64,000 nucleotides of DNA from Tubulanus polymorphus (taxonomy: Eukaryota > Animalia > Nemertea). The first letter of the stretch is position 1. Every line of letters starts with the position of its first letter. Shown piece by piece: positions 10,408-64,000 of the stretch. Both the position numbers and the translations under genes were made by a program. The stretch lies in NCBI RefSeq assembly GCF_964204645.1, contig NC_134033.1, positions 3,742,131 to 3,806,130 on the forward strand, given 5' to 3'. Under the pieces are notes generated by a model. It had not been told where the DNA came from and ran no database searches. It saw only the letters and a program-made list of their open reading frames with translations.

Positions 10408-10844
10408 TATTTACCGCATTTTCGATCGCAAAATAAATTTCTATGATCAATTCAATTCAATGCGCTTCCGACCCGAAATGTACAATGTCGACGGAAAGAA
10501 GGCTCAAACAAAATCAACGCAAATATTCTATATTGAAGCTAAAAGGTCGATTGCAAGGGCCAAATTCGGTTTTCGTATCTAGACGGCTGTTGGTCAGTAC
10601 TGATAACCGAATGCGCTTGATTTTCAGACTATTTGCGGAATATAGTTCCGACTAATGGACATTCGGTTTCGTTTTGAATGGGACAGGCAACAAGTCTATA
10701 AAATGAAGTTGAAATATATCCTTCTTACCGAATTTCTCATTCCTCAAGGTCGTCGAGCAGTTCCACTCCAAAAGCGGCCGATTCTTGCATCATCGGCCTT
10801 TTAATCGCTACGGGACGGGCCGAATTTAGTTTTTAATCGCCAGA
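10408..10844. promoter_or_regulatory. Putative bidirectional promoter for ZRSR2 and CDC123
   Basis: Only 437 bp separate the divergent start codons. Confidence 0.7.
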
Positions 10845-11870
10845 ATGAAAGTCGAACAAGTGAAGAATTGTATTTTCTCCGAGTGGTACCAGACGTTTTC
10901 GGCGGTGACCGTAAAAAGCGTCGCCATTCCCCTGCCCCAGGACGTGGTGCGTTACCTGCTGGCGGACGGCATCGTTCTGCCCGAGGGCTCCGACCACGGC
11001 TGCTGCAACAACAACAAAAACTGCCATTCAGATTCAGACGACGATGAAATAAATTGGGACAACAACGCGACGAGCGGCCGCACGGCGCTCGTTCCGAAAT
11101 TCAGCCCCGAATTCGAAAACCGGGTCGAATCGGCGCTGAAAAAACTCGGCGGCGCCGTCTTCCCGAAACTGAACTGGAGCGCGCCGAAAGACGCTGCCTG
11201 GGTCGCTACTGGTAACACGCTGCAATGCCGGTCGCTCGGCGATATTTTGCTATTGTTGAAATCGTCGGATTTCGTCGCGCACGATCTGACCGTTCCGTTC
11301 GAGCGCTGCACTGACATCGGCGAGGACCTGAACGACGACCGGACCGCGGCCCGATACGAACTCGTGTTGCGTAAATGGACAACAATCGCGCAGTCGTCCG
11401 AATTCCGATGTTTCGTCAAAAATGGGAAAATAATCGCGATTTCGCAGCGTTACTTCGCGGTCTATTTTCCGTTTTTGCTCGCCGACAAAACGCGCATCGT
11501 TGACGATATCGTGAAATTCCACCGGGCGGCGATCGGCGGTCGTTTCCGCGACGACGCGTACGCGATGGACGTTTATCGCCGCGACGACGGCTCGGTGCGT
11601 CTGCTCGATTTCAACCCATTCGGCGAAACGACCGATTCGTTGTTGTTCGACTGGACGGAGCTTCGCGAATCGGACGCGGACTCGGAACCGGAATTCCGGT
11701 GCGTCGAACGCGAGAGCGGCGTCCAACCGAACGAGTTTCACCCGTACGCCGTGCCGAAGGATTTCGTCGATTTGTCGCGCGGCGAGGACCCGTTTAAATT
11801 GATGGATTTGATGAAATTGCGCGAGGCGTCTGCCGAGGCGTCCGATAGTTCGTCCGACGAAGAAGAATGA
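10845..11870 (+). CDS. CDC123: Cell division cycle protein 123 (D123 family ATP-grasp, eIF2 assembly factor), coding region intronless
   Basis: 341 aa; CIFSEWY, YLLADGIVLP, VFPKLNWSAPKDAAW, LLLKSSDFVAHDL, LVLRKW, EFRCFVK..IAISQR, LDFNPF..TDSLLFDW; AATAAA at ~11913. Confidence 0.97.
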   Translation: MKVEQVKNCIFSEWYQTFSAVTVKSVAIPLPQDVVRYLLADGIVLPEGSDHGCCNNNKNCHSDSDDDEINWDNNATSGRTALVPKFSPEFENRVESALKKLGGAVFPKLNWSAPKDAAWVATGNTLQCRSLGDILLLLKSSDFVAHDLTVPFERCTDIGEDLNDDRTAARYELVLRKWTTIAQSSEFRCFVKNGKIIAISQRYFAVYFPFLLADKTRIVDDIVKFHRAAIGGRFRDDAYAMDVYRRDDGSVRLLDFNPFGETTDSLLFDWTELRESDADSEPEFRCVERESGVQPNEFHPYAVPKDFVDLSRGEDPFKLMDLMKLREASAEASDSSSDEEE

Positions 11871-19228: not shown

Positions 19229-19347
19229 CCCTAGATGCCTAAATTTACCGTAGTTTTCATTACGGGAGTGCATCGTGAGTGGATCGGAACCATGATGGCG
19301 GGATTCAGGGCAACCTAAGTGCTAGTCAGACTTCATCGGCTGGCAAC

Positions 19348-20241
19348 ATGAACGAACTTGAATACAGCAACGCTTACCGCTCATTCCGATGCTTCGCTAG
19401 TAATTCGATTTCAGGACCTATAAGACTGGCCGAGGCATTGCGTATATGCGATACCGATATACCTAGAGGCGATCCCGTTAGTGGATTGAGGGTGTTGGCG
19501 ATCGGCGCGGGTCACGGAAATCTACTAGAAGAAACTCTAGGCGCGGTCGGCGATGAAGTAAAGGTAGATCGTTTGGACTGTGTGGAACCGAACAGTGTTA
19601 TGATGATAGAACTGCAGACTCGTATGAGTTTACTCGCTAGTAAGTACAACTTCGAGTATAAACTGTATCAACGACCGTTTACCAGAGAAAGCGCGGCGTC
19701 TTTTCTACCGAACGATTTCTACGATTTGTTGATATTTTCGCACGTATTTTATTATTTCGACGATCCAGCTAGCGAGTTGGAATTCGGTATGTATCGATTA
19801 ACCCGCAAACACGGGCGCGCGTTCGTCCATATGGACACTGAGAACACGATAGCCAAAATAACGCGGGACATCAATCGATGCTTAGGACGCACTGAACGTG
19901 ATATTCCCCATGTAAAATTCGACGTACCTAAAATGGACCTGGACGAAATTCTAACCGCGGCTAAAACGAAGACGGTTTTCAATTCGACGGATTCGGTATC
20001 GGTTGCGGTCCATCTCGCTCTCAAACCAGCTCGACCTCGTCTGAATAAATACGACGAAGAAATACGTGAAATAAACGACCAGTTGTTGTCGTTCGTGGCG
20101 CAAAGAAACGTCGCCGATTTGCCCGAAAATACGCGAGTTCAAATACAGGATATTATTCGCAAACATACCGTGGAAAGCCACGGGTTTCAGTTCATATCGG
20201 GTAAATTGGATAGTCTTTTAGTGATCAGAAACGAAGACTGA
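19348..20241 (+). CDS. Class I SAM-dependent methyltransferase, HNMT-like, copy 1 (297 aa, intronless CDS)
   Basis: Motif [12 protein letters not shown], acidic [21 protein letters not shown] (cf. HNMT ILSIGGG / VVEPS / FIHMIQMLYYVKD). ATG 19348 aligns with the starts of copies 2 and 3. Confidence 0.85.
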   Translation: MNELEYSNAYRSFRCFASNSISGPIRLAEALRICDTDIPRGDPVSGLRVLAIGAGHGNLLEETLGAVGDEVKVDRLDCVEPNSVMMIELQTRMSLLASKYNFEYKLYQRPFTRESAASFLPNDFYDLLIFSHVFYYFDDPASELEFGMYRLTRKHGRAFVHMDTENTIAKITRDINRCLGRTERDIPHVKFDVPKMDLDEILTAAKTKTVFNSTDSVSVAVHLALKPARPRLNKYDEEIREINDQLLSFVAQRNVADLPENTRVQIQDIIRKHTVESHGFQFISGKLDSLLVIRNED

Positions 20242-22084: not shown

Positions 22085-24595
22085 TTTGAAGCACATCATG
22101 CAAATACACTTATGTCTCTCCGCTTTCGAGCCGATCTTTGACCTCTTTGACCTCAGTCTTCGTTTCTGATCACTAAAAAACTTTCCAATTTTCCTTGTAT
22201 GAACTGAAACCCGTGGCTTACCACGGTATGTTCGCCAATGATATCCTGTAATTGAGCTCGCGTATTTTCGGGCAAATCGGCGACGTTTCTTTGCGCCACG
22301 AACGACAACAACTGGTCGTTTGTTTCACGTATTTCTTCGTCGTATTTACTCACACGAGGTCGAGCTGGTTTGAGAGCGAGATGGATCGCAACCGATGCCG
22401 AATCCGCCCAATAGAAAACCGTCTTCGTTTTAGCCGCGGTTACAATTTCGCCGAGATCAAATCGACGGACGTGGAAATTAGCATGAGGAATGTCACGATC
22501 GGTGCTTTCTAAGCATCGATTGATGTCCCGCGTTATTTTGGCTATCGAACCATTGGTTTCCATAACAACAAACGCGCGCCCGTGTTTGCGGGTTAATCGA
22601 TACAGACCGAATTCCAACTCGCTAGCCGGATCTTCGAAATAATAAAGTACGTGCGAAAATATCAACAAATCGTAGAAATCGTTCGGTAGAAAAGACGCGG
22701 CGCTTTCTCTGGTAAACGGTCGTTGATACAGGTTATACTCGAAGTTGTACTTACTAGCGAGTAAACTCATACGAGTCCGCAGTTCTATCATCATAACACT
22801 GTTCGGTTCCACACAGTCCAAACGATCTACCTTTACTTCATCGCCGACTGCGCTTAAAGTTTCTTCTAGTAGATTTCCGTGAGCCGCGCCGATCGCCAAC
22901 ACCCTCAATCCTCGTACGGGATCGCCTCTACGTATATCGGTATCGCATATACGCAATGCCTCGGCCAGTCTTATAGGTCCTGAAATCGAATTGCTAGCGA
23001 AACTTCGTAACGAGCGGTAAGCGTTGCTGTATGCTAGTTCATTCATGTTGCCAGCTCAAGCAAGACTTAGTTGACCTTTTTGATAAGACTGACTCGAATC
23101 ATGTAGAAATGAAAAGTATAATCGGCTTGATTCCTTTTTTTTAAATTCTCATTCTCCAACGTTACCGATTTGCGTTCAATCCATTTCGTTCAGCAGATTA
23201 GCTTTCTTCGGTTTTTGTTCGACTTCGCGACCCATTATTTGAAAAGTTTAGAATTCAAGATATACCTTTGAAGACCCTGATCTTTTTATTTCTGATTTTT
23301 AAACGTCAGCCATATTTACCCTCGATAAATTTCATTCGGCAAATTGACAACGATCAATAATGGATTTTACTTATATGACCTATACTTTTACTTGTATGAC
23401 CTATAAATAACTTTTAAAAAAAATCTAGTGAAATTAAATTGACCTAAATATCGAAAACTGATTTTGTCAGGAATATCGAATGTCTGAAAGAAGGGTGGTT
23501 CCGGCTGTGGATTGATACCTATACATTGGTGCATTTGTTGAGGGAAGCGGGAATGGAGTTACCGATTTCTAGCAAGCGAGACCCATGACACCGTATCTTG
23601 AGAAAATTGATAAAATCTAGTCGAAGCGAAAAATTAGTCCCATAATAAAATCCTATATAATTCATTTGATTCATAATAAGATTTGTACATACACAAAATA
23701 GTTACCACGTATTAACGCTAATTCCGACGGATAGAACATTTAGAATCTACACAACGAACACCAAAATTTTCACCAAAAATATTCCATCGTCAGGTCGACA
23801 GTAGAACCTCCTAACAAACCTTGAATTTCATTGCATATATTATTCTAATACTGGGTATAACTGGGTATATCAGTTAACAAATGGATTTTCTGGTTGCCTA
23901 AAGTTCCTTGTAACGAGAGGCTCTGCTGTAGCTGGCAATGCGCGTAGATAACCTCCTGAAAAAGATGTCTACCTCCGGAAAGAACCCCCTACGACATCAT
24001 CGAATCGATGAGATTTATGTAGGCAGCATTCTTTTCTGGTAATTAAGGAAAATGAAATCATTATTTTTTGAGACAATAATTTAGAATATACGTAGACAAT
24101 ATGGAATGCATCCGGAGACCTTTTCAAAAAAGATGGCTACCCTCAAAATTCTCCGTTTGACTCCACCAATAGGGGAGCCCCCTATAGTGATGATGTCATA
24201 GGGAGATTTTGTGAAGGTGAGGCAGCCATTTTTTCTGGGAGGACAGCAAACCTTGCCTACCTCAGACATGTCCAACTTTTGACTGATTCGGACAAAACGA
24301 AGTCATTTTCTGATCTCCTAACATATTTTGCGATCCTTAAGTCAGACTTTCAGGCTTAAATCGGACCGTTTTTCGTTGGACCAAGTTTGTCCGAGTCGGG
24401 CGAGGTTGACTAGTAAAATGAAATAGCCTACACAGTCGTATAGTTACTTGTTTTTAGCGTGACGTCGAGTCACATTTCGTTGGCACCGAAAACAATTAAC
24501 TAAGATATAGATAGAAAGAAAATTTAATCACATAAATATTTACAAAACAATTCCGAGAATATGATTCTGGAATTTGTAGCGAGGATGGTTTGAAT
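22085..24595. repeat. Segmental duplication unit (MTase plus ~1.5 kb upstream), paralogous to ~28415-31646
   Basis: Near-identical block gacatgtccaacttttgactgattcgg...ggatggtttgaat at ~24265-24595 and ~31312-31646; colinear homology throughout. Confidence 0.9.
22153..23046 (-). CDS. HNMT-like SAM methyltransferase, copy 2 (297 aa)
   Basis: Full-length colinear paralog; motif I reads IGAAHG. Confidence 0.85.
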   Translation of the reverse strand: MNELAYSNAYRSLRSFASNSISGPIRLAEALRICDTDIRRGDPVRGLRVLAIGAAHGNLLEETLSAVGDEVKVDRLDCVEPNSVMMIELRTRMSLLASKYNFEYNLYQRPFTRESAASFLPNDFYDLLIFSHVLYYFEDPASELEFGLYRLTRKHGRAFVVMETNGSIAKITRDINRCLESTDRDIPHANFHVRRFDLGEIVTAAKTKTVFYWADSASVAIHLALKPARPRVSKYDEEIRETNDQLLSFVAQRNVADLPENTRAQLQDIIGEHTVVSHGFQFIQGKLESFLVIRNED

Positions 24596-28514: not shown

Positions 28515-29408
28515 TCAGTTTTCGTTTCTGATCACTAAAAAACTTTCCAATTTGCCCGGTATGAACGGAAACCCGTGGCTTTCCACGGTATGTTCGCGAA
28601 CGATATCCTGTATTTGAGCTCGCGTATTTTCGGGCAAATCGGCGACGTTTCTTTGCGCCACGAACGACAACAACTGGTCGTTTATTTCACGTATTAATTC
28701 GTCGTATTTACTCACACGAGGTCGAGCTGGTTTGAGAGCGAGATGGACCGAAACCGATTGCAGATCCGCCCAATAGAAAACCGTCTTCGTTTTAGCCGCG
28801 GTTACAATTTCGCCGAGATCAAATCGACGGACGTGGAAATTAGCATGAGGAATGTCACGATCGGTTCTTTCTAAGCATCGATTGATGTCCCGCGTTATTT
28901 TGGCTATCGAACCATTGGTTTCCGTAACAACAAACGCGCGCCCGTGTTTGCGGGTTAATCGATACAGACCGAATTCCAACTCGCTTGCCGGATCGTCGAA
29001 ATAATAAAGTACGTGCGAAAATATCAACAAATCGTAGAAATCGTTCGGTAGAAAAGACGCGGCGCTTTCTCTGGTAAACCGTCGCTGATAGAGTTTATAC
29101 TCGAAGTTGTACTTACTAGCGAGTAAACTCATACGAGTTTGCAGTTCCATCATCATAACACTGTTCGGTTCCACACAGTCCAAACGATCTACATTTATTT
29201 CATCGCCGACTGCGCCCAAAGTTTCTTCTAGTAGATTTCCGTGAGCCGCGCCGATCGCCAACACCCTCAATCCTCTCACGGGATCGCCTCTAGGTATATC
29301 GGTATTACATATCCGCAATGCCTCGGCCAGCGTTTTGCTTCCTAAAGTCGAATTACTTTGGAAACTTCGAAATGAGCGGTAAGCGTTGCTGTATTCTAGT
29401 TCATTCAT
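28515..29408 (-). CDS. HNMT-like SAM methyltransferase, copy 3 (297 aa)
   Basis: Full-length colinear paralog; motif I reads IGAAHG. Confidence 0.85.
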
Positions 29409-29769
29409 GTCAGCTCAAGACTTTAAGCCGTTAAGTATCGAGACGTTGTTTTGTGACAACATGCGTGATAACGTTTGGATTGACCCATTCGAATCATTTA
29501 AGAATATACCTGCTAAGAAAGTATAATCGGCTTGATTCTTTTTTCTTTATTTCTTATTCTTCAACGTTACCCATTTACGTGTAATCAATTTCGTTCAGCA
29601 GATTGATATCTTTGTTTGATTTTTGTAAGACTTTGACCCATTAGAAACGTTTAAAAATAACTTTGAATGAAATTGAATTGAGGTAAACTTCAAAAACTGA
29701 TTTTCAGAAATGCTGAATGTATTACGTAAGAGGATGGCTCCGACTGTGGATTGATACCTACATGGATGC

Positions 29770-42200: not shown

Positions 42201-44176
42201 TTATATAGATGATGATATATACATAATTTTGATAAATCAGATCCTTACAATGATGATAATTGAGTCCGTCTGTTTAAATGCGCTGCAAATTTGGTATTAA
42301 TTACCCCCAACCCATAACTCTATTCTTGTATCAGTCATCTCTGCCTGGGTAGAAGTAACATCTGAACAGCTGCTAGACGCTTTGGAGTCGTCTATCAGAC
42401 CAGGTACTCATTTACTTCTGGGGCCTTTTGCAGAGTGATGGCTTAGACTTAAGACCAGTCTAAGACCAACTTAGTTTTATAGCCAATCTAACAACTTAAG
42501 ACCAGTCTTAAGATTTAAGACCACTTTTGGACTTACGGTAAGTCACAACTGTGCAACTGGCCCCTGGGTGGGCTGAGGCAATTAGGAGCCTATAGACCGG
42601 GGACATTATTGTAATATACGGGGATCGAACCCATGACCTGGCTTCCCATGAACGCTCTACCACTCGGCCACACCGCTCGTTATATACCCCCAAAGCCCCT
42701 CGAATACCCCTAGAATACCCCTCGAATTCCGAAATCATTGATCTGTACGAGAATTTTTCGATATATTTTCAGGTGGTCGCGTCGTTGGACATGTACCGCA
42801 ACTTGGTGCACCTCGATCTGGCGAACAACCGGTTAGAAGTGATCGAAGCGGGCGCGTTCGCCGGCGCCGCCGACCTGCGCATGCTGTCGCTAGCCAACAA
42901 CCGCATATCGGTCGTCGACCGGCGCATGTTCCGCGGTTTGAAGAGTCTCGAGATCGTCGACCTGTCGAATAACGATATCGCGGAAATCAGCGACGAGGCG
43001 TTCGCCGATTGCGCCGGCTTGCTGAATCTCGACGCGTCGGGCAACGCGATCAAACGCGTCGCGCGCGCGGCGTTCGTCGGTCTCGACTCGTCGTTGAGCT
43101 ACCTCGACTTGTCGCGCAACCGGCTGACGGAGATTCCGACGAAATCGTTCGCCGAGTTGCGCATGTTGCGCGCGCTTCTACTCGAAAACAACGCCGTCCA
43201 GGTCGTGCGTTCGAACTCGTTCGACGGACTGGCGAAGTTGCGTAAATTGAGCCTGACGGGCAACGCGATCGTGACGATATCGGACGGCGCGTTTGCCGGC
43301 GCCAAGGCCCCCGTCGACCTGCGTTATCTGTCGCTGAAGGAGAATAAGTTGGCGCGAGTACCGACGACGGCGTTGGCGTCCGTACCGGCGCTGGAAGAGT
43401 TGGATCTGAGCGGTAACGCGTTCGAGGTCGTCGACCCCGATTCGTTCAAACCGTTCGATCGTCTGCGTCTGCTCCGCGCGAACGACTGCCCGCGTTTGAA
43501 GGTCGTGCGGAACTACGCGTTCTCCGAGTTGATACTGCTCGAGGAGTTGCAGCTCGGCGGTAACCGCGCGTTGGACACGTTGGAACCGCACGCGTTACTC
43601 GCGACGCCCTCGCTGAAGCGTTTGTTCCTCGCGCGCAACAAATTGTCGTCGGTGCCCGAGGAGCTGGCCGACTGGCGCCGATTGGACGTTCTCGACTTGC
43701 GGTACAACCCGTGGCGATGCGAGTGCGCGTCGCGCTGGATGGCCGACATGTTAAAATACGTGGCGCGTAACGCGACGCGGTTCTACGCCGACGAGGTCTA
43801 CTGCGTCGACGTCGGCGGGCAACACCGACGGATCGTCGACGCGCTTCCGCGGGATTTCGGCTGCCCGTTGTCGGCGGCGCAGCGGAACGATGACGCCGCC
43901 GCGGCCGCCAAAGACGAGTTCGACCATCGCATAATGTTCGGCATAATCGGCGCTACGAGTCTGGCGTTGGTCGTCGCATTTTTCGTCATTCTCTATAAAT
44001 TCAAAATCGACGTTTTCAAACGGTGTCGCGGACAGATGCGGTATAGACGACAGTCGAATCTGGAAACGGTCGTCACGATGACGTCAGCGGCCGCCGCCGC
44101 GACGGCGGCGGACTCGGAGCAGACGCCGATGAAAGTTCAAAACGGTATTTCGTCGTCCGGTGAGATTACGTCCTGA
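39253..44176 (+). CDS. Type I LRR transmembrane protein, tartan/capricious-like, 2 coding exons, ~541 aa
   Basis: Exon 39253-39474 (signal peptide, LRRNT CPAACSC..C, GAG|gtacga) joins 42773-44176 (ttttcag|, ~13 LRRs, LRRCT NPWRCEC, TM IMFGIIG..ILY, short tail). Upstream acceptor at 39242 implies a 5' UTR exon. Confidence 0.88.
39504..39795. mobile_element. piggyBac-like MITE with TTAA TSD; its right part plus flank is tandemly duplicated (39547-39859 / 39860-40172)
   Basis: TTAA|ccctttcagcgc...gcactgaaaggg|TTAA; 313-bp near-identical direct repeat. Confidence 0.88.
40553..40698. mobile_element. PIF/Harbinger-like MITE (ttagttctatagccaatctaacaac core); copies near 2340-2550, 20500-20610, 42421-42563, 45680-45820
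   Basis: GGGCC..TTGCA termini; CTG TSD clear at 42418-42420 / 42564-42566. Confidence 0.75.
41976..42678 (-). mobile_element. tRNA-derived SINE with a nested MITE and a probable LINE-tail insertion
   Basis: Minus strand: A-box GTGGCCGAGTGG, B-box GGTTCGATCCCC (42617-42678), core cacccag|aagtaaatgagtacc split by MITE 42421-42563, tail gcgctacataaat..(att)n. Confidence 0.6.
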
Positions 44177-50405: not shown

Positions 50406-50449
50406 ACGGTCACCGTTGTAGCAACTGTAACGATAGGAAATTCTGACAA

Positions 50450-51454
50450 ATGAGCAAGATGGCGCCGGCGAACGGAACTGACGTCACCGAATGCTCGTAT
50501 CTATCGAAGAATAACGTCTGGTTGACCGTGTTGTTGTACGTATCGACGCCGATCTGCTTGACCGGGTTCGTTTTGAACGCTATCAGTTTCGTGATTTTAC
50601 GCAAGCACAGTTCGCGTTCGAATTCTTTCCACCTGTTGCAGATTTTGGCCGTCGTCGATAACTGTTTTCTGTTAGTGTCGGTGTCGTTGGTGAACGTGCG
50701 TCGGTTTTTCTCCTATTTGACGTACGGACGGAGGTTTTTCTATCTATCGGACGCCTTCATCGGGCCGCGATTCCTCGTCTACCTAGCTCCGCCGCATCTT
50801 ATCATGCGTATGATAAGAAACTGGCTTATCGTGCTGATAAGTCTAGACCGGGTTATTCATATCGTTTTCCCTTTGAAATCGATCGTTTTATGCACTAAAT
50901 TCAAACTAAATTTATCATTCGCGTTTATAGTCGTATTCAGCGCTGGGTTGCAAGGTTTCAAATTTTGTTGTTTGAGGTTTTCCCACCAGATTCCCAAATG
51001 CCCAGCAGTCAATATTCCGTTACTGCGATTTCATGCTGAATTCCCAGGCGGTGTGGATGAATTGACTATTGTCACCTCGATCATAATTTTGCCATTTGTA
51101 ATTCTATGCGTGACCAACACCATATTATCCGTGCACTTGTACAAAGCACGTGCCAAGCGACAGACGATGGCGACGTCTGGCGGCACACACGGGAAAGACC
51201 AAGAATTGCAGGCGACGCTGCTCGCTTTAGGTATCGTGGCGACGTTTCTAGTTTGCGAGAGCCCGAATAGCGTGGAGCGAATCGTCGAAATCGTCTTCTA
51301 CAACGGCAGACGATTGCGCACGCATCCTATGATGCAGGTTTCCATTCAAATGGATTCATGCGTCAATTTTCTAGTTTATTGTCTGTCGAGTAAAAAATTC
51401 CGGACGCTGACGGCGCAGATGTTGGCGATAAGAGAGCACTTAATCAAAGTCTGA
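50450..51454 (+). CDS. Intronless rhodopsin-family GPCR, FMRFamide/sex-peptide-receptor-like (orphan peptide or chemoreceptor clade), 334 aa
   Basis: Seven hydrophobic segments; N-glycosylation NGT, GFVLN, LAVVD, NWLIVLISLDRVIHIVFP, FLVCESP, DSCVNFLVYCLSSKKFR. Confidence 0.9.
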   Translation: MSKMAPANGTDVTECSYLSKNNVWLTVLLYVSTPICLTGFVLNAISFVILRKHSSRSNSFHLLQILAVVDNCFLLVSVSLVNVRRFFSYLTYGRRFFYLSDAFIGPRFLVYLAPPHLIMRMIRNWLIVLISLDRVIHIVFPLKSIVLCTKFKLNLSFAFIVVFSAGLQGFKFCCLRFSHQIPKCPAVNIPLLRFHAEFPGGVDELTIVTSIIILPFVILCVTNTILSVHLYKARAKRQTMATSGGTHGKDQELQATLLALGIVATFLVCESPNSVERIVEIVFYNGRRLRTHPMMQVSIQMDSCVNFLVYCLSSKKFRTLTAQMLAIREHLIKV

Positions 51455-51890: not shown

Positions 51891-54800
51891 TGTAGAAACA
51901 GCCGGTGGAGAGTTTGTAAGATTTCGATTGGCGTTTACCCGAATCTCTTCTGTCGCGTTTGATTTGACTAGACTATAACATCTCAATCCGGAATGGTAGA
52001 ATCTGTAAACCTGACCTCGTCGACCGGTGGAGCGTTTGTCAGGTTTCGGTTGGTCTTTACCGATTCCAGAATGTAATCTTGATATATGCGGGCCGGTAGA
52101 GAATTTGTAATCCGCGAATTACTAGGCCCCTATTTGTAAAACGAATACGTTGGATCAAAACCTGCTTTTATTGGTGAATAATACAATACAGTGAATAATC
52201 TAATGCTTGCTGTGGTTATATGATTAGGATAATCCAATTAGCCAGAATGTTTAGTTTAATTGCTGTCAATGTCAATTCATATTTTCAACAAGGACAACAA
52301 TTCACCGTTTAATTCAGTTAAAACGGTTAGGTAAGGGTTATATGGTAATAATACATGATAATAAAAATGATATTGTATAATGAATTTCTTTCCCAGGAAG
52401 TACAAAACACAAATACAGTCATTGTTATTACATAAAAGAAAACGAAAAAGAAATATAGCTGCAAAGCAGCGATTATGGGTTTTCGGCAGAAAAGCACGAG
52501 ATGCATTTGAACCGATGAATAGAAATTGAAAAAAATAAATTGGCGGGCATTCGAAGATGACACAACTGAAGAAAATGTAAAGATTCAGCAATCCTCGAAG
52601 CAACCCTCTTCTTGCGTATCATCGGGTAGAATGGATGTTCCATCACCGTAGGTATGCGGGAGTACAGGATACCTGAAGGGACATGCTGATTGCTAGTTGT
52701 CGATGCGAGTTGCGGTACTAGATTTCCGCCGGTGTTTGTCGTCTGACAAATAGTCGGAGGTCAGAATTTTAGGTTTAGAATATGATGGACAGTACATACA
52801 CAAGAATCTGTTTAGTTCAGAATGACTGTTATAATTCTACCAGAATACAACATTTCATTTAGAAACAGTTAGTTGTCGAATCTGATAGATGAATTTCATG
52901 TACGAAAAATGCGGAAAATGAATAATAATAATAATAATCAACAGAATTACAAAAACTAATTACTTCGATACTGAAAAAGCGTAGGAAAGAAAACAGAGAA
53001 AACAGGACAAAATGAGATCCCGAGGGGTATATTTTAAGAAAAAGCCAATGCCCTGGTGGAATGAGAATTGGACAGGAAAAACAATTTTGGGATTGAAATT
53101 GATAGCATTTCACTTAAACCGCATAAACATCGCCAAAAAGATGCGAACCAAGATGAGGTGAACGTAGAGAGGGGGTATGACGATATGAATTTCAATTTTG
53201 TAATATGTTTTTATAGAATATTGATTTCGACATCAAAATCGCTGACGTTGCAGAATAAAAAATAGAATATATTTTTTGCACTGAACTCACTGAAAAACAC
53301 ACGAATGAAGATTAGTTGAATGTTTAAAGGGGGTATGACGATAGGGATTTCAATTTTGTAACATATTTCTATAGAACATTGATTTCAACATCAAAATCTC
53401 TGACGTTGCACAATATGAAATAGCATATATTTTTGCAGCGAACTTCGATATTTTATCACCTGCTCTGCTTGGGATTCGAATGCTCGTAATTAACAATGGT
53501 AAAAACTCTTTGAAGCTATATTTGGTTACCGGTCGACTAGGTCTTTGACGAAATAACGTTATTATATTTGCACCCAAACAGTCTGTTAAAATACGCAACG
53601 TTATTTACAGACGGCCTATTTTGTATATAACCACAAGCATCAGATGCGCAGACGACATCGAACACACAGCGACGTGAACAGTCATCAAACCGTAAGTAAT
53701 GTATTCGGGGGAAAAGTTTGCAGAAAATTGTTCAAGCGAATGATTTGGTTTGATTCGTTTCTTTCGGTGACTTCGTGTTTCCAATGAAGACCACAACAAT
53801 ATTCCAACACCCCCGTTTTTGCGCATATAAAGGCTTTTCTAGAACCTGGGCACTGTTTTGGGTTCGTCACAAAGAAGAATTGTGAATGAGTTAGGGAGCA
53901 TCTCAGCATTTCGATCGTTTTTTCAATTACTCGTCAAAGGGGACGGGGGAGGGGTTTAAGGCCAACCCCGGTATGATCAGGACTACCGATCATAACTATG
54001 GGATTCGAACATTAACATTCGAACATCAAAAAAGACGTTTGTTTGAGAAAACATGCACCCGTTACGGGAAATTTGTTCATAAAATCTCTTAGAGTTTAGG
54101 TTTTGACAATTTTTTTCCATAATTTTTCCATTCAATTTTCAATAAAAGTTGTGATCAAAATACATTCGTGACAACTTATCAGTGTCTAATCAATGGGTCG
54201 GTCGAGGGGTAAAAGAAGAATAATAAATCATTTTAATTGACACAACTATTGAGATTTTGCTGCCTTGTCGATTGGTTCGCGCGCGATGGACGGGGTCACT
54301 GGAGACTGGGATTGGCTACGAATTTCGTGACTCTGATATTCACGGATCCAGCCCTTTTGTGTGCGAAAATTATATTTAATTACTGGGTCGATCGGTGACG
54401 TCTAATTCAGTAACTGTTATATGGGTAAATATCATTATGGAGAAAAGTGAGGCCGTAATAAGTGGGGCCGTATTGCCGAGCTTTTTCAAAAAGTGCGGTT
54501 TTTCACCACGAATAAATGTCACTTTCCTATTGAAGAACCAAGGAGAGGTCTTTGATATGATTTTTTGGGTACTCGAATAAATCATTTGACAATGGATTGA
54601 TTTTCATTTTCCATAATAAAACATGAAAATTGTATCCACTCGACGAAAAAGATCTTTTTGAAGGGGACTTTGAGAATTTTAGGGGGTCGTTCGCTAACCC
54701 TGTACCCCTCGGTACGGGCCCGATACACGAAACACCCGTGTTACGGGTACTTCAGGAAAACGGTATTTTCTATACGTGTGAACCATCCTCCTTTGCCAGG

Positions 54801-55469
54801 GTTTGATTGCCTGCCGGCTAAGGGGCCATCAATCTATGGATTAAGCCAATGATATGCGTTGGTTTTCAACGGTAGATTCGTTACGCATCCCTGATTGGCT
54901 AGTATATAGAATGGTGGCCGCTGAGCAGCAACCTGTCCGCGCAAGAAACTTGGGCAATCTAATAGCAATGCGTGTGAACTAACGTGCAGACCATAGGCTT
55001 ACCGGGCGCTTCGAGTGTTTCTGGCTAGCAAGAGCGCACTTTTAATGATAATAACGATTAATGCATATCCCAGTTACATTTTGGTTATTAATAAATGCCA
55101 AAACACCGAAGTGGTACCTGCAGCGAGTGAGGTTGACATCTACTAGTACGCCCATTTCGCTTTTTTTTATGTGACAATCGATTGATTGATCCGACCGACG
55201 AATTTCAGTGGTTTAAGACATCGGAAAACTTATGAAATATCCAAACGTCTTATTTTACAATATTTCGTACTATAATTCGTGAACAAAACATTATTATCCT
55301 TGTAAAATATCGAAATCACCTTTGCGGCCGGTCACATGCGTATTCATCATAAGAATCGGTCCTTAAACAGGGTGAATGCAGGTTGCCGTAGAATTCGCCA
55401 GGTATTTTCTTTATGATTCATATAGGTGTCATTTGATTCACTAGAAAGTTACTGAACGCTATCACCACG

Positions 55470-56382
55470 ATGAAGACGATCATTGCATTATTATGTAAGA
55501 ATCCGTTATAATATTGTAATTCCATGAGTAACTCACGACTTTTGCACGATATACAATGGATGGATTTTCCCTAATTTTATGTATGTTTTTCAAGTCGTAG
55601 CGGTTGTTGGTGTCGCATTTGCACGTTACACGGCCGAACAGTACCAAACAATGTGTAGTCAACATTGCGATGGAGAATCGGGAATGGCGGACCCGACTGA
55701 GAGAGCAAGGCTTTTACCAATTTGTAAAAGGTAAGTTAAATTTTCTAGTCATCAGTAAAATATTCTTGCCGTATAAACGCTCAGCGTGTTCATCCTACGA
55801 GAACAACATACCCTCGCTTGCCAGGGTTTGGTTGCCGCCCGCTGAATTTCAAGCAAACCTTTCATTCGTCGATTCGGGCATGGTTTGTGTTGGTATGAGA
55901 TTCGGCGGGCGGCAACCAAACCCTGGCAAGCGAGGGTATGTTGTGTATAGATCCACTAGCAAAATAATGTCCAGATATCGTTTGGAATCTCGTCCAGGTT
56001 CACAAAATTACGTCACTGAAAAACAATTGTTTGTGCCTAGTTCTGCCGCTAGGTGGCGAATGGGGCCATTCAAGTTTCATCGAGATCCACACACCATAAA
56101 CGAAGCTAAGCATCCGAAGGACAGACACAGACGAACGAACGATACCGAGAACCAATAACGCGTCTTTTGATATCTAGCTCTAGCTTAAACCTATATTTGG
56201 GGGGAGGGACACAAGCTGTAGAGGATGTTTGAATGATAGAGATAACTAATCTTTGCATTTTCATTTTCAGACGTTGTGAGATTACCGCAATGTGTTTAAG
56301 ATCAAAATGCGGCGGATCGATTCAATCTGCAGAGAATATGTGTTTTGTGAACTGCCAGCGTGCTGCTGCGCAAGCTTGTTAA
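55470..56382 (+). CDS. Secreted 9-Cys peptide precursor, copy A (90 aa, 3 coding exons)
   Basis: Exons 55470-55494, 55595-55730, 56271-56382; GT-AG, in phase; AATAAA at 56394. MKTIIALLFVAVVGVAFA-RYTAEQYQTMCSQHCDGESGMADPTERARLLPICKRRCEITAMCLRSKCGGSIQSAENMCFVNCQRAAAQAC*. Confidence 0.85.
55803..55944. mobile_element. Palindromic MITE in intron 2 of peptide copy A (left arm missing in copy B)
   Basis: acaacataccctcgcttgccagggtttggttgccgccc / gggcggcaaccaaaccctggcaagcgagggtatgttgt. Confidence 0.8.
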
Positions 56383-57440
56383 ATGGCTTCGTGAATAAAC
56401 GTATTCTGCAAATCTAACACAATTGACAGCCTGTTTCTCGTATATTTTGACTAGGGATGAATTTATGTTTTGTACTCCAACAGTAATTCGGAATGTTAGG
56501 AATGAATTGTTTCATCTGCCCGAAGTTGAGGGCTCCGCTGGGTCCGCATGGTTGGATTTTCTTTCACCAATATCAAACACGCTGATATACTTACCTTTAA
56601 CTCCGGGTTAAAAGGTAAAAAACAAAACATAACAACATAACCTTGTACTTACATTTTAAGTTTGACAATTGCATACGATCAATGATAGGTTTACCTATAC
56701 CTAAAGGAATTCTCAACTCAACAGTTGTTATTTTGTGTAGTTGTTATTAGTGTAAAAGTGTTTCTTTTTTTTATAAACTGATAGAATATGGTTCATGGTC
56801 GCTCCAAACAATTTTCAGCTTCATTCCAAAGTATCGTACTGGTTTACTGATTTACAAGTGCGACTGAGCCAGAATTGTTCGCAATAAAGATACTCTAATT
56901 TACACTTGTCGCTGATTTGACTAGGATGACACAACTTCACGCGAGATATGACACCAAAAAAAAACATTGTTAAAATACTCAAAAGGTTTTTCTAAATTTT
57001 TTTGGCATACTTCCGGAAAGAAATCCCCCGGAAATCCGATCCCCGACCAGAAATATTCCCGAAATAAATCCGACGGAAATTTCCGGCACGATTCCGGAGA
57101 AAAATCTTCTGGAAGTTACTGACTTTCTGTTCTGCGTAATTTCTGGGCACGAATGACGCGAAGAAACCGAGCCTTTACTTGGGAATTGGTCTGAAATGCT
57201 CGACGGTCTGACAACGTCAATATTGTACGCCCCCTGGTGAACAGGTAAGTAATCAATGAGCTAAACTCGCCACTAACATATTGCTTTGAGATGGAATTTG
57301 CATATAGAATATGCATTTTTTTCCAAAATCAGAAACACATTTCGAAATCTACCTTCGTAATCAAACCAACACCAAAATACGGAAACTTCCCTATTGGGAA
57401 AAAGAAATATCGGACGCATTAAAATTGCCCTGCGTGATGG

Positions 57441-57930
57441 TTATTTGACTGGATTTCTACAGCCGATTTTCATACAGAAATATTCACGAATTTCTCGTCC
57501 CAGTAAAAGATATATGTAGAAATTGACCACGAAGTTGCCGACTAAAAACTGCATGAATATGTCGTGTAGGAAATCTCTCTGTTTCGGCGAAATTGGTAAC
57601 AGCGAAATAACTGCTGATGGGAGCAAAAATATCGCAAACGCGAGCAAAACTGTTACGAGCATTATTGTCGTACGTTTTGATTTCGTAGTTTTCTGATCGG
57701 ACGAAACCATTTTTGAACCTCTGAATAACTGAACTGTTCATAGCCGAAATTGATGTTCGGTGCGATATGAATGTGGACGACTGTTACGATGAAAACGATC
57801 ATTCAGTAGTTGAATTCGTAGAAAACATCCGATGAACCTGTCGGAAACGAACATCGACAAAATAGACGTGAGGTATAGGACCAGTATATTCACTGCAATA
57901 ATCATGAATATAATAAATCTAGCGAATCTA
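57441..57930 (-). pseudogene. Frameshifted/truncated rhodopsin-family GPCR relic (TM6-TM7-helix 8 intact)
   Basis: KRTTIMLVTVLLAFAIFLLPSAV...NFVVNFYIYLLLGREIR. Upstream hydrophobic segments are out of frame; 5' boundary approximate. Confidence 0.7.
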
Positions 57931-60900
57931 AGGTGTAAATATCAAACGAGATGTGAACGGCAAGATATGATCTCTTCCCAATATATAACCCTCACGAATT
58001 TCATTGAATAATAGTTAACCATTCAAGCTGCAGGTCCAAAAATGACGCATTTCGGTCTCAGAAAGGTCATTATCCGATTTTTCTTATGATACTAGGGGCC
58101 TTTAAGCGATACATATAATAATAATACTATTAATAGTAATAATAATTTATTCAGCATAAAATCCATTTTAAATATGCTCATTGGCTTTACATCATATATA
58201 AAAAGAGAACATAGAAACAGAGAAAACTAAAACGAATTTAGTTAAAAAGCTTTCGATGAACAAATGGGTTTTGAATTAAGATTTAACATCGATTGAAGGA
58301 CTAGATTCAATTGGTCTTGATGGCCGTTTACAGAGACATTGTAGCAATCACAACTGAAAAATAATACCGATATACAACTTAAGTTAAAACTATGGCCATT
58401 TATAGAATTATGTTACTAATTTGTAGTCAGTGCGGAACGTTTGGTTTTGGAACAATAATGAGGGGTGGTAGGTAAGTCATGATTTACCACATGTTACTTC
58501 CGTGTTGATGAAAATCTCGCGAGAATGGCGCAACATTGAAACCTGGCTTATCATACATATTTCTTGTACATATTCACAATTTATCCGCTATAAAGGCTCG
58601 ATAAACAATTGCATGCTTACGATCAGTATGATTAGCGCTGGCGGCGATGGTTGTCCGAAACGCGATTTCACGAGAGAGTTACCGCCATCTTGTTTGCACT
58701 GCGCATGCTCCTCCCCATTCTGTTTGTAAACACAGTCCACACATGAGCACTACACTCGCTGCGTGAGCGTATCACTCTCAAAACAAAACAAATAGCACCA
58801 GAACCCGCCAACCTGGGCACCTTTTCAAACGATTTTACATCTACACGATTAAATCTATTTCTGACAGCGTTTTTGCTTCTTATTCGTTTATCTAGTGTTT
58901 CAACGAGTTTATCAGCACCGGACGACCTCCAGGGGTTAAGATGGATCTTTGAACAAATGAACAATTTTCAAATAGTGATTTTTTCCCACGTATGTTATTC
59001 ATTTATTTCAACTCAAAAACCTTTGGAGAATTTAATTAAAGAAATAGTCGCAAATCCTTCGAATGATCGCACGTGCGATCGCGGCCGCCCCGCTCGTGCT
59101 TGAAATGGAAAATTAGTATCTCGTACGATGATGAGTGATCGAAAATAAAAGATGAAATCTAAATCATTCGATGCTTTCAGAGAAATGCATTGGAAAATGT
59201 GGTTTGGAAATAAACTGAATGTGTTATTACCTCATTTCACATGTTGCCTCCCTCCTGGACGTATTAACTACGCTAAACTATGATCGTTGTGACCTTTGTG
59301 CTGGCCACAAATGCACGCACATCACACTACACTACCAATTCGACACCCAACTACCCACAGCTTTGATATAACCATCCTATTATCTAGTGTGTTTCTCCCT
59401 GAGTTCAATTGAACTAGGTATAACAGAGTACTGAGGCAGAGTACACATCTAAATATGAACCATTGAGGAAACTTGATCGATGCAACTTCGAAATTTCCCT
59501 TGAAAACTTATAAATGTATGAAAAGTCCAGATTTCTGGGTGCAACGTGGCCAACAGAAATGCATCGTCAAGTTCGCGTCGATTTAACGTGACATTTAACA
59601 TACTATATTCGAAGAATGTATTGATTCGTGTTATCGCATTTATGATATCATATTACGGCTATTATTTCGTTGACAATTTAAGGAAATTTATCGCAGATCA
59701 ACTGTATCAACTGGTCCTATATATAAACTGAATATCAAGACAATCCACCAAAGCGTCTACAAAACTTCCCAAATTGACTGGATTCCGTCTACAGATGAAC
59801 AAACAGTAACGAAAAGTGAACGCAATTTCCCGCTTGGACTTAAGTCCCTAATGGACTAAAAAGCGATGTATTTAATTTTGAACTCCTTCCACCCTCTTCG
59901 CTCGCATCTCCCCCTTTAAACAGCATAAAGATCGCCAAAAACACACGAATGAAGATTAGCTGAATGTTGAAAGGGGGTATGACGATAGGGATTTAAATTT
60001 TGTAACATATTTCTATAGAACATTGATTTCAACATCAAAATCTCTGACGTTGCACAATATGAAATAGCATATATTCTTGCACCGATTTTCGATATTTCAT
60101 CACCTGCTCTGCTTGGGATTCGAATTCTCGGAATTAACAATGGTAAAAACTCTCGGAAGCTATATTTGATTACCGGGTCTCGGTCGACTAGGTCTTTGAT
60201 GAAATAACGTTATTATATTTGCACCCAAACAGTCTGTTAAAATACGCAACGTTATTTACAGATGGTCCATTTTGTATATAGCCACACGCATCAGAGGCGC
60301 AGACGACATCGAATCAACAGCGACGTGAACAGTCATCAAACCGTAAGTAATGAATCAGGGAGGAAAAGTTTGCAGAAAATTGTTCAAGCGAATGATTTTG
60401 TTTGATTCATTTCTTTCGGTGATTTCGTGTGTCCAATGAAGACCACAACAATATTCCAAGACCATAACCGTTCTTTTTGCGCATATTAAAGCTTTTCTAG
60501 AATCTGGGCACTGTTGAGCTCGTCACAAAAAATAATTGAGAATGATTTAGAGAGCATCTCGACATTTCGATAGTTTTTTTTCAATTAGAATAACTCGCGG
60601 AGGGGGTTGGGATGGGGGGTTAAGGTATACCGCGGTATGATCACGACTACCGAATATCGATCATTACTATTTGTTTTGAGTATTAATCAAAAAGCTGCTT
60701 GTTCGGAAAAACATGCACTCTTTGTAAGCTCTTTGTTCACTTAGTAAAACATGCACTCTTTACGAGAAATTTGTAGAGGCGTTTTTGTTTATTAAGTCTC
60801 TTAGAGTTTAAAAGCTTTTAACAGATTTCTTTCATGATTTTTTAATTAAAAGTTGTGATCAAGATACATTCGTCAGAGCTTCTCTTTGAATGTGGTCTTG

Positions 60901-62122
60901 GGCATGTGTCTGATCAAAGTGGGTTGGGGGTAAAACGAATAAAGACAGTTATTCTAATTGATGCGTCAACTATTGAAATCTTGGGAGACTGCCATAGTCG
61001 ATTGGGTTGGTGCGCGAGCTAATACGGGGTCACTGGAGACTGGGATTGGCTACGAATGTCGTGATTGTGTAATTCACGGAGCCTCCCCTGTTGCGTGAAA
61101 TCATCGATATGTGGTCGGTGAGATCGAATTCAGTAACTGATTTGGGAAAATACCATTATGTAGAAAAAGAAGGACCGTTTTGAGGCCGCACCGAGCTTTA
61201 TTGAGGGGGAGTTCTATTTCATGAAAAAGGCACTTTTTCACCAGGAAAAATAACACTTACCTTAATACCATAAGCGGAGATCTTGAAACGATTTTCTGAG
61301 TACGAATAAATCATTTGTGAATGGATTCTTTTCATTTTTTTTTTCATTTTCCAAAATAAAACGTGAAAATTGTAAACAAATTTTGACGAAAAAGATCTTG
61401 ACCCGAATTTTTTTTCACACTGACTTTTGAAGGGCACAATGAAAATTTTAGGGTTCGTTCACTACCACTGAACACCCTCGATACACGGGAAACACCCGTA
61501 ACACGGTCTCTTCTCTACGTCTAAACCATCCTCGCTTGCCAGGGTTTGATTGCCTCACGGCTAAGGGGCCACCAGTATTGAATTAACCCAATGATATGCG
61601 ATGGTTTTCACCGGCAGATTCCCTACGCATCCCTGATTGGGTACATAGACTGGTGGCCGCTTAGCGGTTCGACGGTTCCTGGCTGACAAGAGCGCACTTT
61701 TAATAATAATAACGATTTCACGCGGGGACAATACATATCTCAATTATCTGTCGTTTGTTGATAAATGCCAAAACACCGAAGTGGTACCTGCAGCGAGTGA
61801 GGGTGACATCTGACGCCCATTTCATTTTTTTCATGTGATAGATTATTCAATGATTCGACTGGCGTGTTTCAGTGGGTTTAGGCATCGGAAAACTAATGAA
61901 ATATCCAAACGTCTGATTTTACAATATTTTGTATTTATGAACATCATTATCATTATTAAGTATCTTAATCGCCTTTGCGGCCGATCACATGTGCGCTCAT
62001 CATAGGAATCGGGCCTTAAACAGGGTGAATATAGGTTGCCGTAGAATTCGCCAGGTATTTTCTTTATGATTCATATAGGTGTCATTTGATTCACTAGAAA
62101 GTTACTGAACGCTATCACCACG

Positions 62123-62967
62123 ATGAAGACGATCATTGCATTATTATGTAAGTAATTCGTTATAATACTGTAATTCCATGAGTAACTCACGACTTTTTCA
62201 CGATATACAATGGATGGATTTTCCCTAATTTTATGTATGTTTTTCAAGTCGTAGCGATTGTTGGTGTCGCATTTGCGCGTTACACGGTCGAACAGTACCA
62301 GACAATGTGTAGTCAACATTGCGATCGACAATCGGGAAGGGTCACCGACCTGACTGAGAGAGCAAAGCTTTTACAAACTTGTAAAAGGTAAGTTAAATTT
62401 TCTAGTGATCAGTAAAATATTCTTGCCGTATAATCACTCAGCGTGTTCATCCTACGTACGCGGGCGGCAACCAAACCCCGGCAAGCGAGGGTATGTTGTA
62501 CCTAGAGGTACGTATAGATCCAATAGCTAAATGATGTCCAGATATCGTTTTGAATCTCGTCCAGGTTCAGTAGGTCATTTTCACAAAATCACGTCACTGA
62601 AAAAAAAATTGTAAGTGCTTAGTTCTGCCGCTAGGTGGCGAATGGGGCCATTCAAGTTTCATCGAGATCCACACACCATAAACGAAGCTAAGCATCCGAA
62701 GGACAGACACAGACGAACGAACGATACCGAGAACCAATAACGCGTCTTTTGATATCTAGCTCTAGCTTAAACCTATATTTGGGGGGAGGGACACAAGTTT
62801 TAGAGGATGTTTGAATGATAGAGATAACTAATCTTTGCATTTTCATTTTCAGACGTTGTGAGATTACCGCAATGTGTATAAGATCAAAGTGCGGCGGATC
62901 GATTCAATCTGTGGAGAATAGTATGTGTTTTGTGAACTGCCAGCGTGCTGCTGCGCAAGCTTGTTAA
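62123..62967 (+). CDS. Secreted 9-Cys peptide precursor, copy B (92 aa, 3 coding exons)
   Basis: Exons 62123-62147, 62249-62387, 62853-62967; same splice sites; AATAAA at ~62979. MKTIIALLFVAIVGVAFA-RYTVEQYQTMCSQHCDRQSGRVTDLTERAKLLQTCKRRCEITAMCIRSKCGGSIQSVENSMCFVNCQRAAAQAC*. Confidence 0.85.
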
Positions 62968-64000
62968 ATGGCTTCGCGAATAAACGTATTCTGCAAATCT
63001 AACACAATTGACAGCCTGTTTCTCGTATATTTTGACTAGGGATGAATCTATGTTTTGTACTCCAACAGTAATTCGGAATGTTAGGAATGAATTGTTTCAT
63101 CTGCCCGAAGTTGAGGGCTCCGCTGGGTCCGCATGGTTGGATTTTCTTTCACCAATATCAAACACGCTGATATACTTACCTTTAACTCCGGGTTAAAAGG
63201 TAAAAAACAAAACATAACAACATAACCTTGTACTTACGTTTTAAGTTTGACAATTGCATACGATCAATGATAGGTTTACCTATACCTAAAGGAATTCTCA
63301 ACTCAACAGTTGTTATTTTGTGTAGTTGTTATAGTGTAAAAGTGTTTCTTTTTTTACAAACTGATAGAATATGGTTCTTGGTCGCTCCAAACAATTTTCA
63401 GCTTCATTCCAAAGTATCGTACTGGTTTACTGATTTACAAGTGCGACTGAGCCAGAATTGTTCGCAATAAAGATACTCTAATTTACACTTGTCGCTGATT
63501 TGACTAGGATGACACAACTTCACGCGAGATATGACACAAAAAAAACATTGTTAAAATACTCAAACGGTTTTTCTAAATTTTTTTGGCATACTTCCGGAAA
63601 GAAATCCCCCGGAAATCCGATCCCCGACCAGAAATATTCCCGAAATAAATTCGACGGAAATTTCCGGCACGATTCCGGAGAAAAATCTTCTGGAAGTTAC
63701 TGACTTTCTGTTCTGCGTAATTTCTGGGCACGAATGACGCGAAGAAACCGAGCCTTTACTTGGGAATTGGTCTGAAATGCTCGACGGTCTGACAACGTCA
63801 ATATTGTACGCCCCCTGGTGAACAGGTAAGTAATCAATGAGCTAAACTCGCCACTAACATATTGCTTTGAGATGGAATTTGCTTATAGAATATGCATTTT
63901 TTCCAAAATCAGAAACACATTTCGAAATCTACCTTCGTAATCAAACCAACACCAAAATACGGAAACTTCCCTATTGGGAAAAAGAAATATCGGACGCATT

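Follow-up and report, generated by a model that had tools for sequence, protein, structure and literature searches.

Based on a site-by-site comparison of two neighbouring peptide genes, here called copies A and B, in a stretch of 64,000 nucleotides of Tubulanus polymorphus DNA (the window), the contrast between their differing coding sequences and their nearly identical downstream DNA is probably the product of exchange between members of a tandem array, through recombination or gene conversion, with a breakpoint in intron 2 and weak constraint on one loop of the peptide, and not of selection for change. The pattern is an ordinary one, namely a mosaic formed by tandem paralogs whose peptide family is lineage-restricted and uncharacterised. 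An earlier reading of the same DNA had taken the contrast as a sign of diversifying selection, typical of toxins and recognition ligands; most of its individual observations were reproduced, and the selective interpretation was not.

Copies A and B are three-exon genes on the + strand, one in each of two head-to-tail repeat units, and their start codons lie 6653 bases apart, which gives a tandem unit of about 6.65 kb. The features of the two units are as follows.

about 53114-57420: repeat unit A, head-to-tail with unit B
about 59916-64000: repeat unit B, truncated by the end of the window
55470-56382, + strand: copy A, whole gene, product of 90 amino acids
55470-55494, + strand: copy A exon 1, start codon and first 8 leader codons, followed by GTAAG
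55595-55730, + strand: copy A exon 2, remainder of the leader, Cys1 to Cys3 and the C2-C3 segment, with AG before and GTAAGT after
about 55669-55722, + strand: C2-C3 segment of copy A, inside exon 2
56271-56382, + strand: copy A exon 3, Cys4 to Cys9 and the stop codon
62123-62967, + strand: copy B, whole gene, product of 92 amino acids
62123-62147, + strand: copy B exon 1
62249-62387, + strand: copy B exon 2, translated as 62251-62388
62323-62379, + strand: C2-C3 segment (the loop) of copy B, codons 34-52
62853-62967, + strand: copy B exon 3, with the stop codon

Every intron of both copies is of the GT..AG type and both reading frames are open. The first residues of each product form a hydrophobic leader that terminates in AFA, and the about 72-74 residues after it contain nine cysteines; both peptides are predicted to be secreted after cleavage of the leader. 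The gene model, for which frame-preserving indels had been put forward as independent support, holds: both coding indels are 3 nt long, against seven of nine non-coding indels that are not multiples of three, these nine being drawn from blocks that also contain the A/B coding indels. The model is further backed by the paralog LOC141914569, which matches A and B in the leader, the residues at the exon junctions and the cysteine framework.

The codon counts behind the original prediction were exact: 12 codons differ by replacement and 3 by silent change only, two in-frame indels of 3 nt are present, and all nine cysteines (9/9) are shared by the two copies. Exon 1 is identical between A and B (25/25), and exon 2 and exon 3 carry 12/136 mismatches (8.8%) and 4/112 mismatches plus one 3-nt indel, respectively. 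Both quoted strings of the C2-C3 loop match the DNA exactly, and the loop of copy B is indeed the more basic, with a net charge of +1 compared with -2 in A. The changes also cluster in this loop as had been claimed, since 8/12 replacements and one indel fall within 19 of 92 codons; counted by sites, about 8.5 non-synonymous differences occur at 40.5 sites in the loop versus 3.0 at 130.7 sites in the remaining mature peptide (Fisher p about 5e-4).

A codon ratio of 12:3 does not, however, amount to a dN/dS above 1, because replacement sites are about 3.6 times as numerous as silent sites (211.7 vs 58.3) and because part of the silent change is hidden. Three of the 12 replacement codons hold two changes each and conceal silent steps, so that the raw silent count understates the synonymous differences; the site-corrected counts for A vs B are Sd 5.5 and Nd 12.5 (Nei-Gojobori). 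Omega is thus 0.61 over the whole coding sequence (Nei-Gojobori NG86; dS 0.101, dN 0.062), 0.85 in exon 2 and 0.25 in exon 3 (both Nei-Gojobori), and the dN/dS comparison that had been set beforehand gave values not above 1 for either the gene or exon 2. Within the loop (codons 34-52), omega is 2.05, a value from two DNA sequences with Nd 8.5 and Sd 1.5 (one-sided Fisher p 0.49), and in the mature peptide without the loop it is 0.23 (Nei-Gojobori). The proposed constrained scaffold with a variable C2-C3 segment was therefore borne out by these two values and by the difference in replacement density, and the scaffold is under purifying selection. The further step to diversifying selection is unsupported by any of the tests; the loop value rests on 8.5 versus 1.5 changes.

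The A and B units were aligned and divided by a mismatch profile in 100-column bins and by BIC segmentation, which was run on a 10-nt grid with a minimum segment of 30 nt, so that a short exon island could vanish into a larger block. Identity along the paralogous units changes in abrupt steps, with mismatch levels of 21.8%, 5.8% and 1.0%, and the last change-point falls inside intron 2 (A 56037/56038, B 62619/62620).

A 53302-53811, B 59946-60469: 5' end of the repeat unit, 6.1% mismatches (31/510)
A 53812-55345, B 60470-61998: old unhomogenised block, upstream intergenic DNA, 21.8% (298/1370)
A 55346-56037, B 61999-62619: intermediate block, 5.8% (34/590), from the promoter through exon 1, intron 1 and exon 2 to two thirds of the way into intron 2
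A 56038-57420, B 62620-64000 (window end): young block, 1.0% (14/1378), with the distal part of intron 2, exon 3 and over 1 kb of the 3' flank
55803-55944: palindromic insertion of 142 nt in intron 2 of copy A, with 56-nt arms that are 91% complementary

The BLAST identity of the young block is 96.2% over 1546 columns when gaps are counted. The original prediction had described the non-coding DNA next to the exons as nearly identical, which is true of distal intron 2 and the 3' flank (2/233 and 8/1033 mismatches) but not of proximal intron 2, where 15 mismatches occur in 205 aligned bases (7.3%), or of the DNA upstream (21.8%). The contrast between exon 2 and "identical" DNA thus sets two blocks with different histories against each other. 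Of the palindromic insertion in copy A, copy B has the right arm only, and reads from an independent individual run into the insertion (loose end at 62456). A motif of about 40 nt related to the palindrome was also observed upstream of both copies, at about 54790-54830 and 61530-61570, where contig depth is raised. The palindrome and the motif together point to a repeat of MITE-like type, located at the block boundary or close to it.

When each exon was compared with the non-coding DNA of its own block, the excess that the selective reading had expected in exon 2 was not significant. Exon 2 does not significantly exceed intron 1 (p 0.10), which with 3/100 mismatches is nominally less diverged, or proximal intron 2 (p 0.68), and against all non-coding DNA of the intermediate block it stands at 12/136 vs 22/429 (p 0.145). 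The loop is the densest 54-nt window in the block, and 32% of permutations gave a window equally dense, so that as a separate island of divergence it reaches a scan p of 0.32, or 0.77 once neighbouring mismatches are counted as single events. Exon 3 lies nominally above its own block (4/112 vs 10/1266, p 0.022), and in a test stratified over both blocks the divergence of the exons is about 2.2 times that of the local non-coding DNA (odds ratio 2.2, p 0.019). This excess is carried by synonymous sites at least as much as by replacement sites, with 2/23 synonymous sites changed in exon 3 compared with 10/1266 (p 0.018). Because selection on amino acids does not predict an excess in which synonymous sites are raised equally, the excess fits an older ancestry of the exon patches better than amino-acid selection; selection that keeps exon differences against homogenisation could also yield a nominal excess of this kind.

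Evidence for exchange between array members is provided by a third paralog, C (LOC141914569; XP_074661903, P0001), a Tubulanus polymorphus protein listed in RefSeq as "uncharacterized protein" and distinct from both A and B. The translation of exon 2 of copy B matched this protein, and only this protein, in a collection of 5.8 billion sequences (96% identity, E 5.2e-21). At the protein level, exon 2 sites group B and C against A in 9 cases, A and C against B in 2 and A and B against C in 0, versus 1, 2 and 9 columns (7 events), respectively, for exon 3; with C alone as the third sequence, the conflict between the two protein-level patterns has a Fisher p of 1.2e-4, or 4.1e-4 when counted by events with the 3-residue C-terminal extension as one. 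Paralog C differs from A and B by four changes at the start of its exon 3 part and by this extension. Since A is the outlier in exon 2 and A and B are sisters in exon 3, exchange between paralogs within intron 2 is indicated, and the inferred site of exchange coincides with the jump in DNA identity. Contigs from three other runs, which span introns and intergenic DNA and behave as DNA, carry variants on exon 3 of A that recreate the C-terminal 16 residues of paralog C, extension included.

From one independent individual, 245 raw genomic reads could be placed on 62090-62470 at a likeness of at least 85%; their depth is about 69, compared with about 5.4x expected for a single-copy locus. The expectation was derived from 1934 Mb read and a haploid genome of 358 Mb, the flow-cytometry value given in PMC8468679. 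From these depths, roughly 13 array members at a likeness of at least 85% can be estimated, on the assumption that every read is of worm origin and that the genome size measured by flow cytometry is applicable here. Variable sites in the reads were found at 6/25 positions in exon 1, 8/101 in intron 1, 16/139 in exon 2 and 5/83 in proximal intron 2. When the two introns are pooled, exon 2 does not stand out from them (p 0.17). The read variants of exon 2 comprise 11 replacement and 6 silent changes (about 0.5 per site), those of the loop 9 and 3 (about 1.0 per site), and those of exon 2 outside the loop 2 and 3. At least four exon 2 haplotypes are present. The A-type loop variants all occur in 28-39% of reads, and from this uniform share they move as one block; the other loops (B, C and further B-like ones) are B-like and lie one to three residues apart. 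Loop variation thus consists of two old classes and is not continuing diversification. The most variable spot of the family in this individual's reads is 62326-62329 (B codons 35-36), with CGA, AGA and GGA at codon 35, a G>A change also at the second base of that codon, and CAA or GAA at codon 36.

The most likely history of the array can be proposed from these results. Its members, probably about a dozen, would evolve in concert and exchange DNA, and one breakpoint of this exchange would lie near the centre of intron 2. The 3' halves of A and B were probably homogenised recently by unequal crossing-over or conversion and the middle block earlier, and the DNA upstream retains old divergence. 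The segment connecting helix 1 and helix 2 of the peptide, in which the loop lies, would be weakly constrained. The nucleotide divergence of the loop (8-10/54) equals that of the unhomogenised intergenic block, and from this match the A-type loop is probably an old lineage that escaped homogenisation instead of a fast-evolving one.

The main competing explanation is positive selection on an exposed C2-C3 segment after duplication, for example during the retargeting of a toxin or ligand, with the loop classes kept distinct despite conversion. The loop omega of 2.05, the concentration of replacements in the loop compared with the scaffold, the charge shift of +3 and the excess divergence of the exons all agree with it, as does the co-existence of two loop classes in the independent individual, and tandem duplication with positive selection is described for other nemertean toxin families in PMC10674772. 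However, the value above 1 is not significant and the gene as a whole lies at 0.61; the reads lower the loop ratio to about 1.0 per site and that of exon 2 to about 0.5, the synonymous sites of the exons are raised too, and the cluster in the loop is no denser than chance allows within its block. In addition, the B, C and B-like loops differ by so few residues that they form one of two old classes, and a divergence at the intergenic level is what neutral old divergence would give. Positive selection is therefore regarded as unlikely, although it is the alternative to be taken most seriously. A related and slightly less credible scenario is a hitherto undescribed, Tubulanus-restricted family of disulfide-stapled three-helix toxins or defence peptides in an array of about a dozen copies, in which the deeply diverged acidic A-type and basic B-type loops would be kept separate by selection during conversion of the DNA around them and the loop would serve as a surface for target recognition.

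The replacements could also be neutral drift in one or two decaying copies, under relaxed constraint or as young pseudogenes. A and B are absent as annotated proteins from the searched collections, in which paralog C is present, and a loop omega of about 1-2 would be expected of such copies; on the other hand, the frames, splice sites and all nine cysteines are intact, both coding indels keep the frame, omega is 0.23 outside the loop, and the stretch with promoter, 5' UTR and exon 1 (B 62033-62156) has zero mismatches, so that decay appears quite improbable. Still less probable, to the point of being nearly dismissed, is an assembly artefact in which a single locus is represented twice, its alleles or haplotypes having been misplaced in tandem as A and B. 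The third paralog lies on a 106-kb record, which may signal a region that is hard to assemble, and a contig joins A 56525 to B 63120, which are homologous places; the upstream divergence of 21.8% with its many indels far exceeds allelic levels, however, and the read depth, some 13 times that expected of one copy, and the presence of at least four exon 2 haplotypes also argue against a single locus. The junction in the 3' flank (56525/63120) was observed in one contig in each of two runs of the same sample, and it may represent an additional copy, a haplotype formed by recombination or ambiguous mapping. The array mosaic is accordingly preferred to these explanations.

Searches and structural models used single-exon translations and paralog C as a stand-in for full-length A and B. 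When 1.84 billion representatives were searched exhaustively with HMMER, 3 proteins were returned at E <=0.001, with one true relative beyond LOC141914569; the third protein, P0003, a repetitive metagenome ORF of 617 amino acids, was rejected as a spurious match of 29 residues in 8 repeats. The more distant relative, LOC141904625 (XP_074649348, P0004), is also from T. polymorphus, is likewise listed as "uncharacterized protein", lies on another record of 27 Mb and shows 33% identity to C (E 1.4e-4). Word-based searches returned only LOC141914569 (1/15 and 1/6 candidates) and then this protein together with LOC141904625 (2/30). The translations and alignments all contain the leader up to AFA and the framework CxxxC ... 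CxxxCx5Cx3-4C ... CxxxC. Eight cysteines are common to all members, and the ninth, C-terminal one occurs in A, B and LOC141914569 only; LOC141904625 shares the leader and the eight cysteines without it. Judged from these matches, Tubulanus is the only genus in which this uncharacterised family has been observed to date.

Pfam gave nothing above noise for the four exon translations, LOC141914569, LOC141904625 and P0005, and a sequence search of the PDB with LOC141914569 at E up to 10 gave one chance match, the unrelated aminotransferase 3get (E 1.1). Foldseek found 0 matches to the PDB at E <=0.001 with the model of paralog C, and among 48,161 chains compared by VIA-align the highest Z was 7.0, with generic helical arrangements throughout. 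Two candidates from such comparisons were discarded. A fire-ant venom allergen (VIA-align Z 6.2) was tied with unrelated chains, and eclosion hormone (PF04736), whose ESM Atlas feature score of 0.75 was the best obtained and yet below the noise level of the tool, had no Pfam match at E up to 10 with the exon translations, LOC141914569 or LOC141904625. The term "Eclosion hormone" occurs 0 times in the nemertean neuropeptide paper PMC8557429, and a 13-residue motif of the family is absent from the papers searched; a transcript of this kind may yet be listed in the supplementary toxin tables of PMC9415933 (Table S4, on T. polymorphus).

AlphaFold models of LOC141914569 contain three helices at residues 22-37, 43-67/68 and 78-92/93, with a mean pLDDT of 76-77 and, in a two-sequence run, 85-90 over the mature part. 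The C2-C3 segment in this model of the paralog spans the end of helix 1, a turn and the start of helix 2, and both coding indels fall in predicted connections between helices. The product may thus be an exported, disulfide-stapled three-helix peptide. A toxin-like or defence role, for example in mucus or the proboscis, is a low-confidence guess made from the organism.

Several other features of the window were observed. The spacer between units A and B (57332-60067) is high-copy repeat DNA, with a summed contig depth of about 10^2 to 10^4.5 over three runs (in the deepest of them, the majority of bins reach the thousands), compared with tens to a few hundred in the flanks. Minus-strand ORFs lie at 53537-53731 (-) and 60188-60406 (-), in the less-diverged 5' end of each unit, and their motif CxRRC..C..CG weakly resembles the region of the exon 2/3 junction of the peptide (tblastn E 0.08-0.2); given the in-frame stop in the unit B copy, the resemblance probably reflects chance or a relic. 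An intronless ORF of 335 amino acids at 50447-51454 (+), some 4 kb upstream of copy A, has weak matches to rhodopsin-type 7TM and Srx chemoreceptor proteins (E about 1e-6), and a connection with the peptides would be purely speculative. Weak matches to methyltransferase domains were obtained for three paralogous ORFs of about 300 amino acids, at 19279-20241 (+), 22153-23055 (-) and 28515-29414 (-); their DNA is 87-91% alike, and one is inverted relative to the other two. An intronless homolog of D123 (CDC123) at 10830-11870 (+) (E 2e-95) and an ORF for a leucine-rich-repeat protein at 42596-44176 (+) are ordinary gene content around the array.

To our knowledge, nemertean peptide toxins are poorly known and the peptides of palaeonemerteans have barely been studied. 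The present case shows how a comparison of two copies can mislead, as a raw 12:3 ratio set against an "identical" flank mimics toxin-style diversifying selection, and site-corrected rates, block-wise divergence and a third paralog point instead to an ordinary mosaic of a tandem array. Should secretion of the peptides in mucus or the proboscis be established, the array would be useful for studying concerted evolution versus diversification.

Among characterised nemertean peptides, B-IV of Cerebratulus lacteus is a helical hairpin of 55 residues with four disulfides (PDB 1VIB; PMC6410017). The B-neurotoxins (B-II/B-IV) and nemertides beta are likewise small, secreted, disulfide-rich and all-helical, properties that the Tubulanus peptide shares by prediction, with 8-9 cysteines arranged as CxxxC pairs and a fold predicted to be all-helical. 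In contrast to this general likeness, no sequence similarity to the B-neurotoxins was detectable in the PDB search at E up to 10 with paralog C as the query, and 1VIB is not among the structural matches listed for the model of paralog C. The mature Tubulanus peptide is also longer (about 72-74 residues), with three predicted helices, and comes from a palaeonemertean, whereas the B-toxins are from heteronemerteans.

At the level of gene organisation, section 2.7 of PMC10674772 describes five Cytotoxin-A loci in tandem in Lineus longissimus. The Tubulanus array resembles this one in consisting of lineage-restricted, tandemly multiplied peptide genes, secretion being predicted in the present case, and differs in that the family is unrelated in sequence and known here from genes alone.

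Conotoxin and snake phospholipase A2 genes show accelerated evolution of exons, with dN/dS clearly above 1. The Tubulanus genes have in common with them a conserved leader and cysteine scaffold, variable segments between cysteines and introns that are more alike than exons; unlike those genes, A and B have a dN/dS of 0.61 overall, and their synonymous sites are raised too. Tandem families, on the other hand, evolve in concert through unequal crossing-over and gene conversion, and it is this behaviour that the A and B units follow, with stepwise blocks of identity and conflicting genealogies of adjacent segments, and nothing unusual among them.
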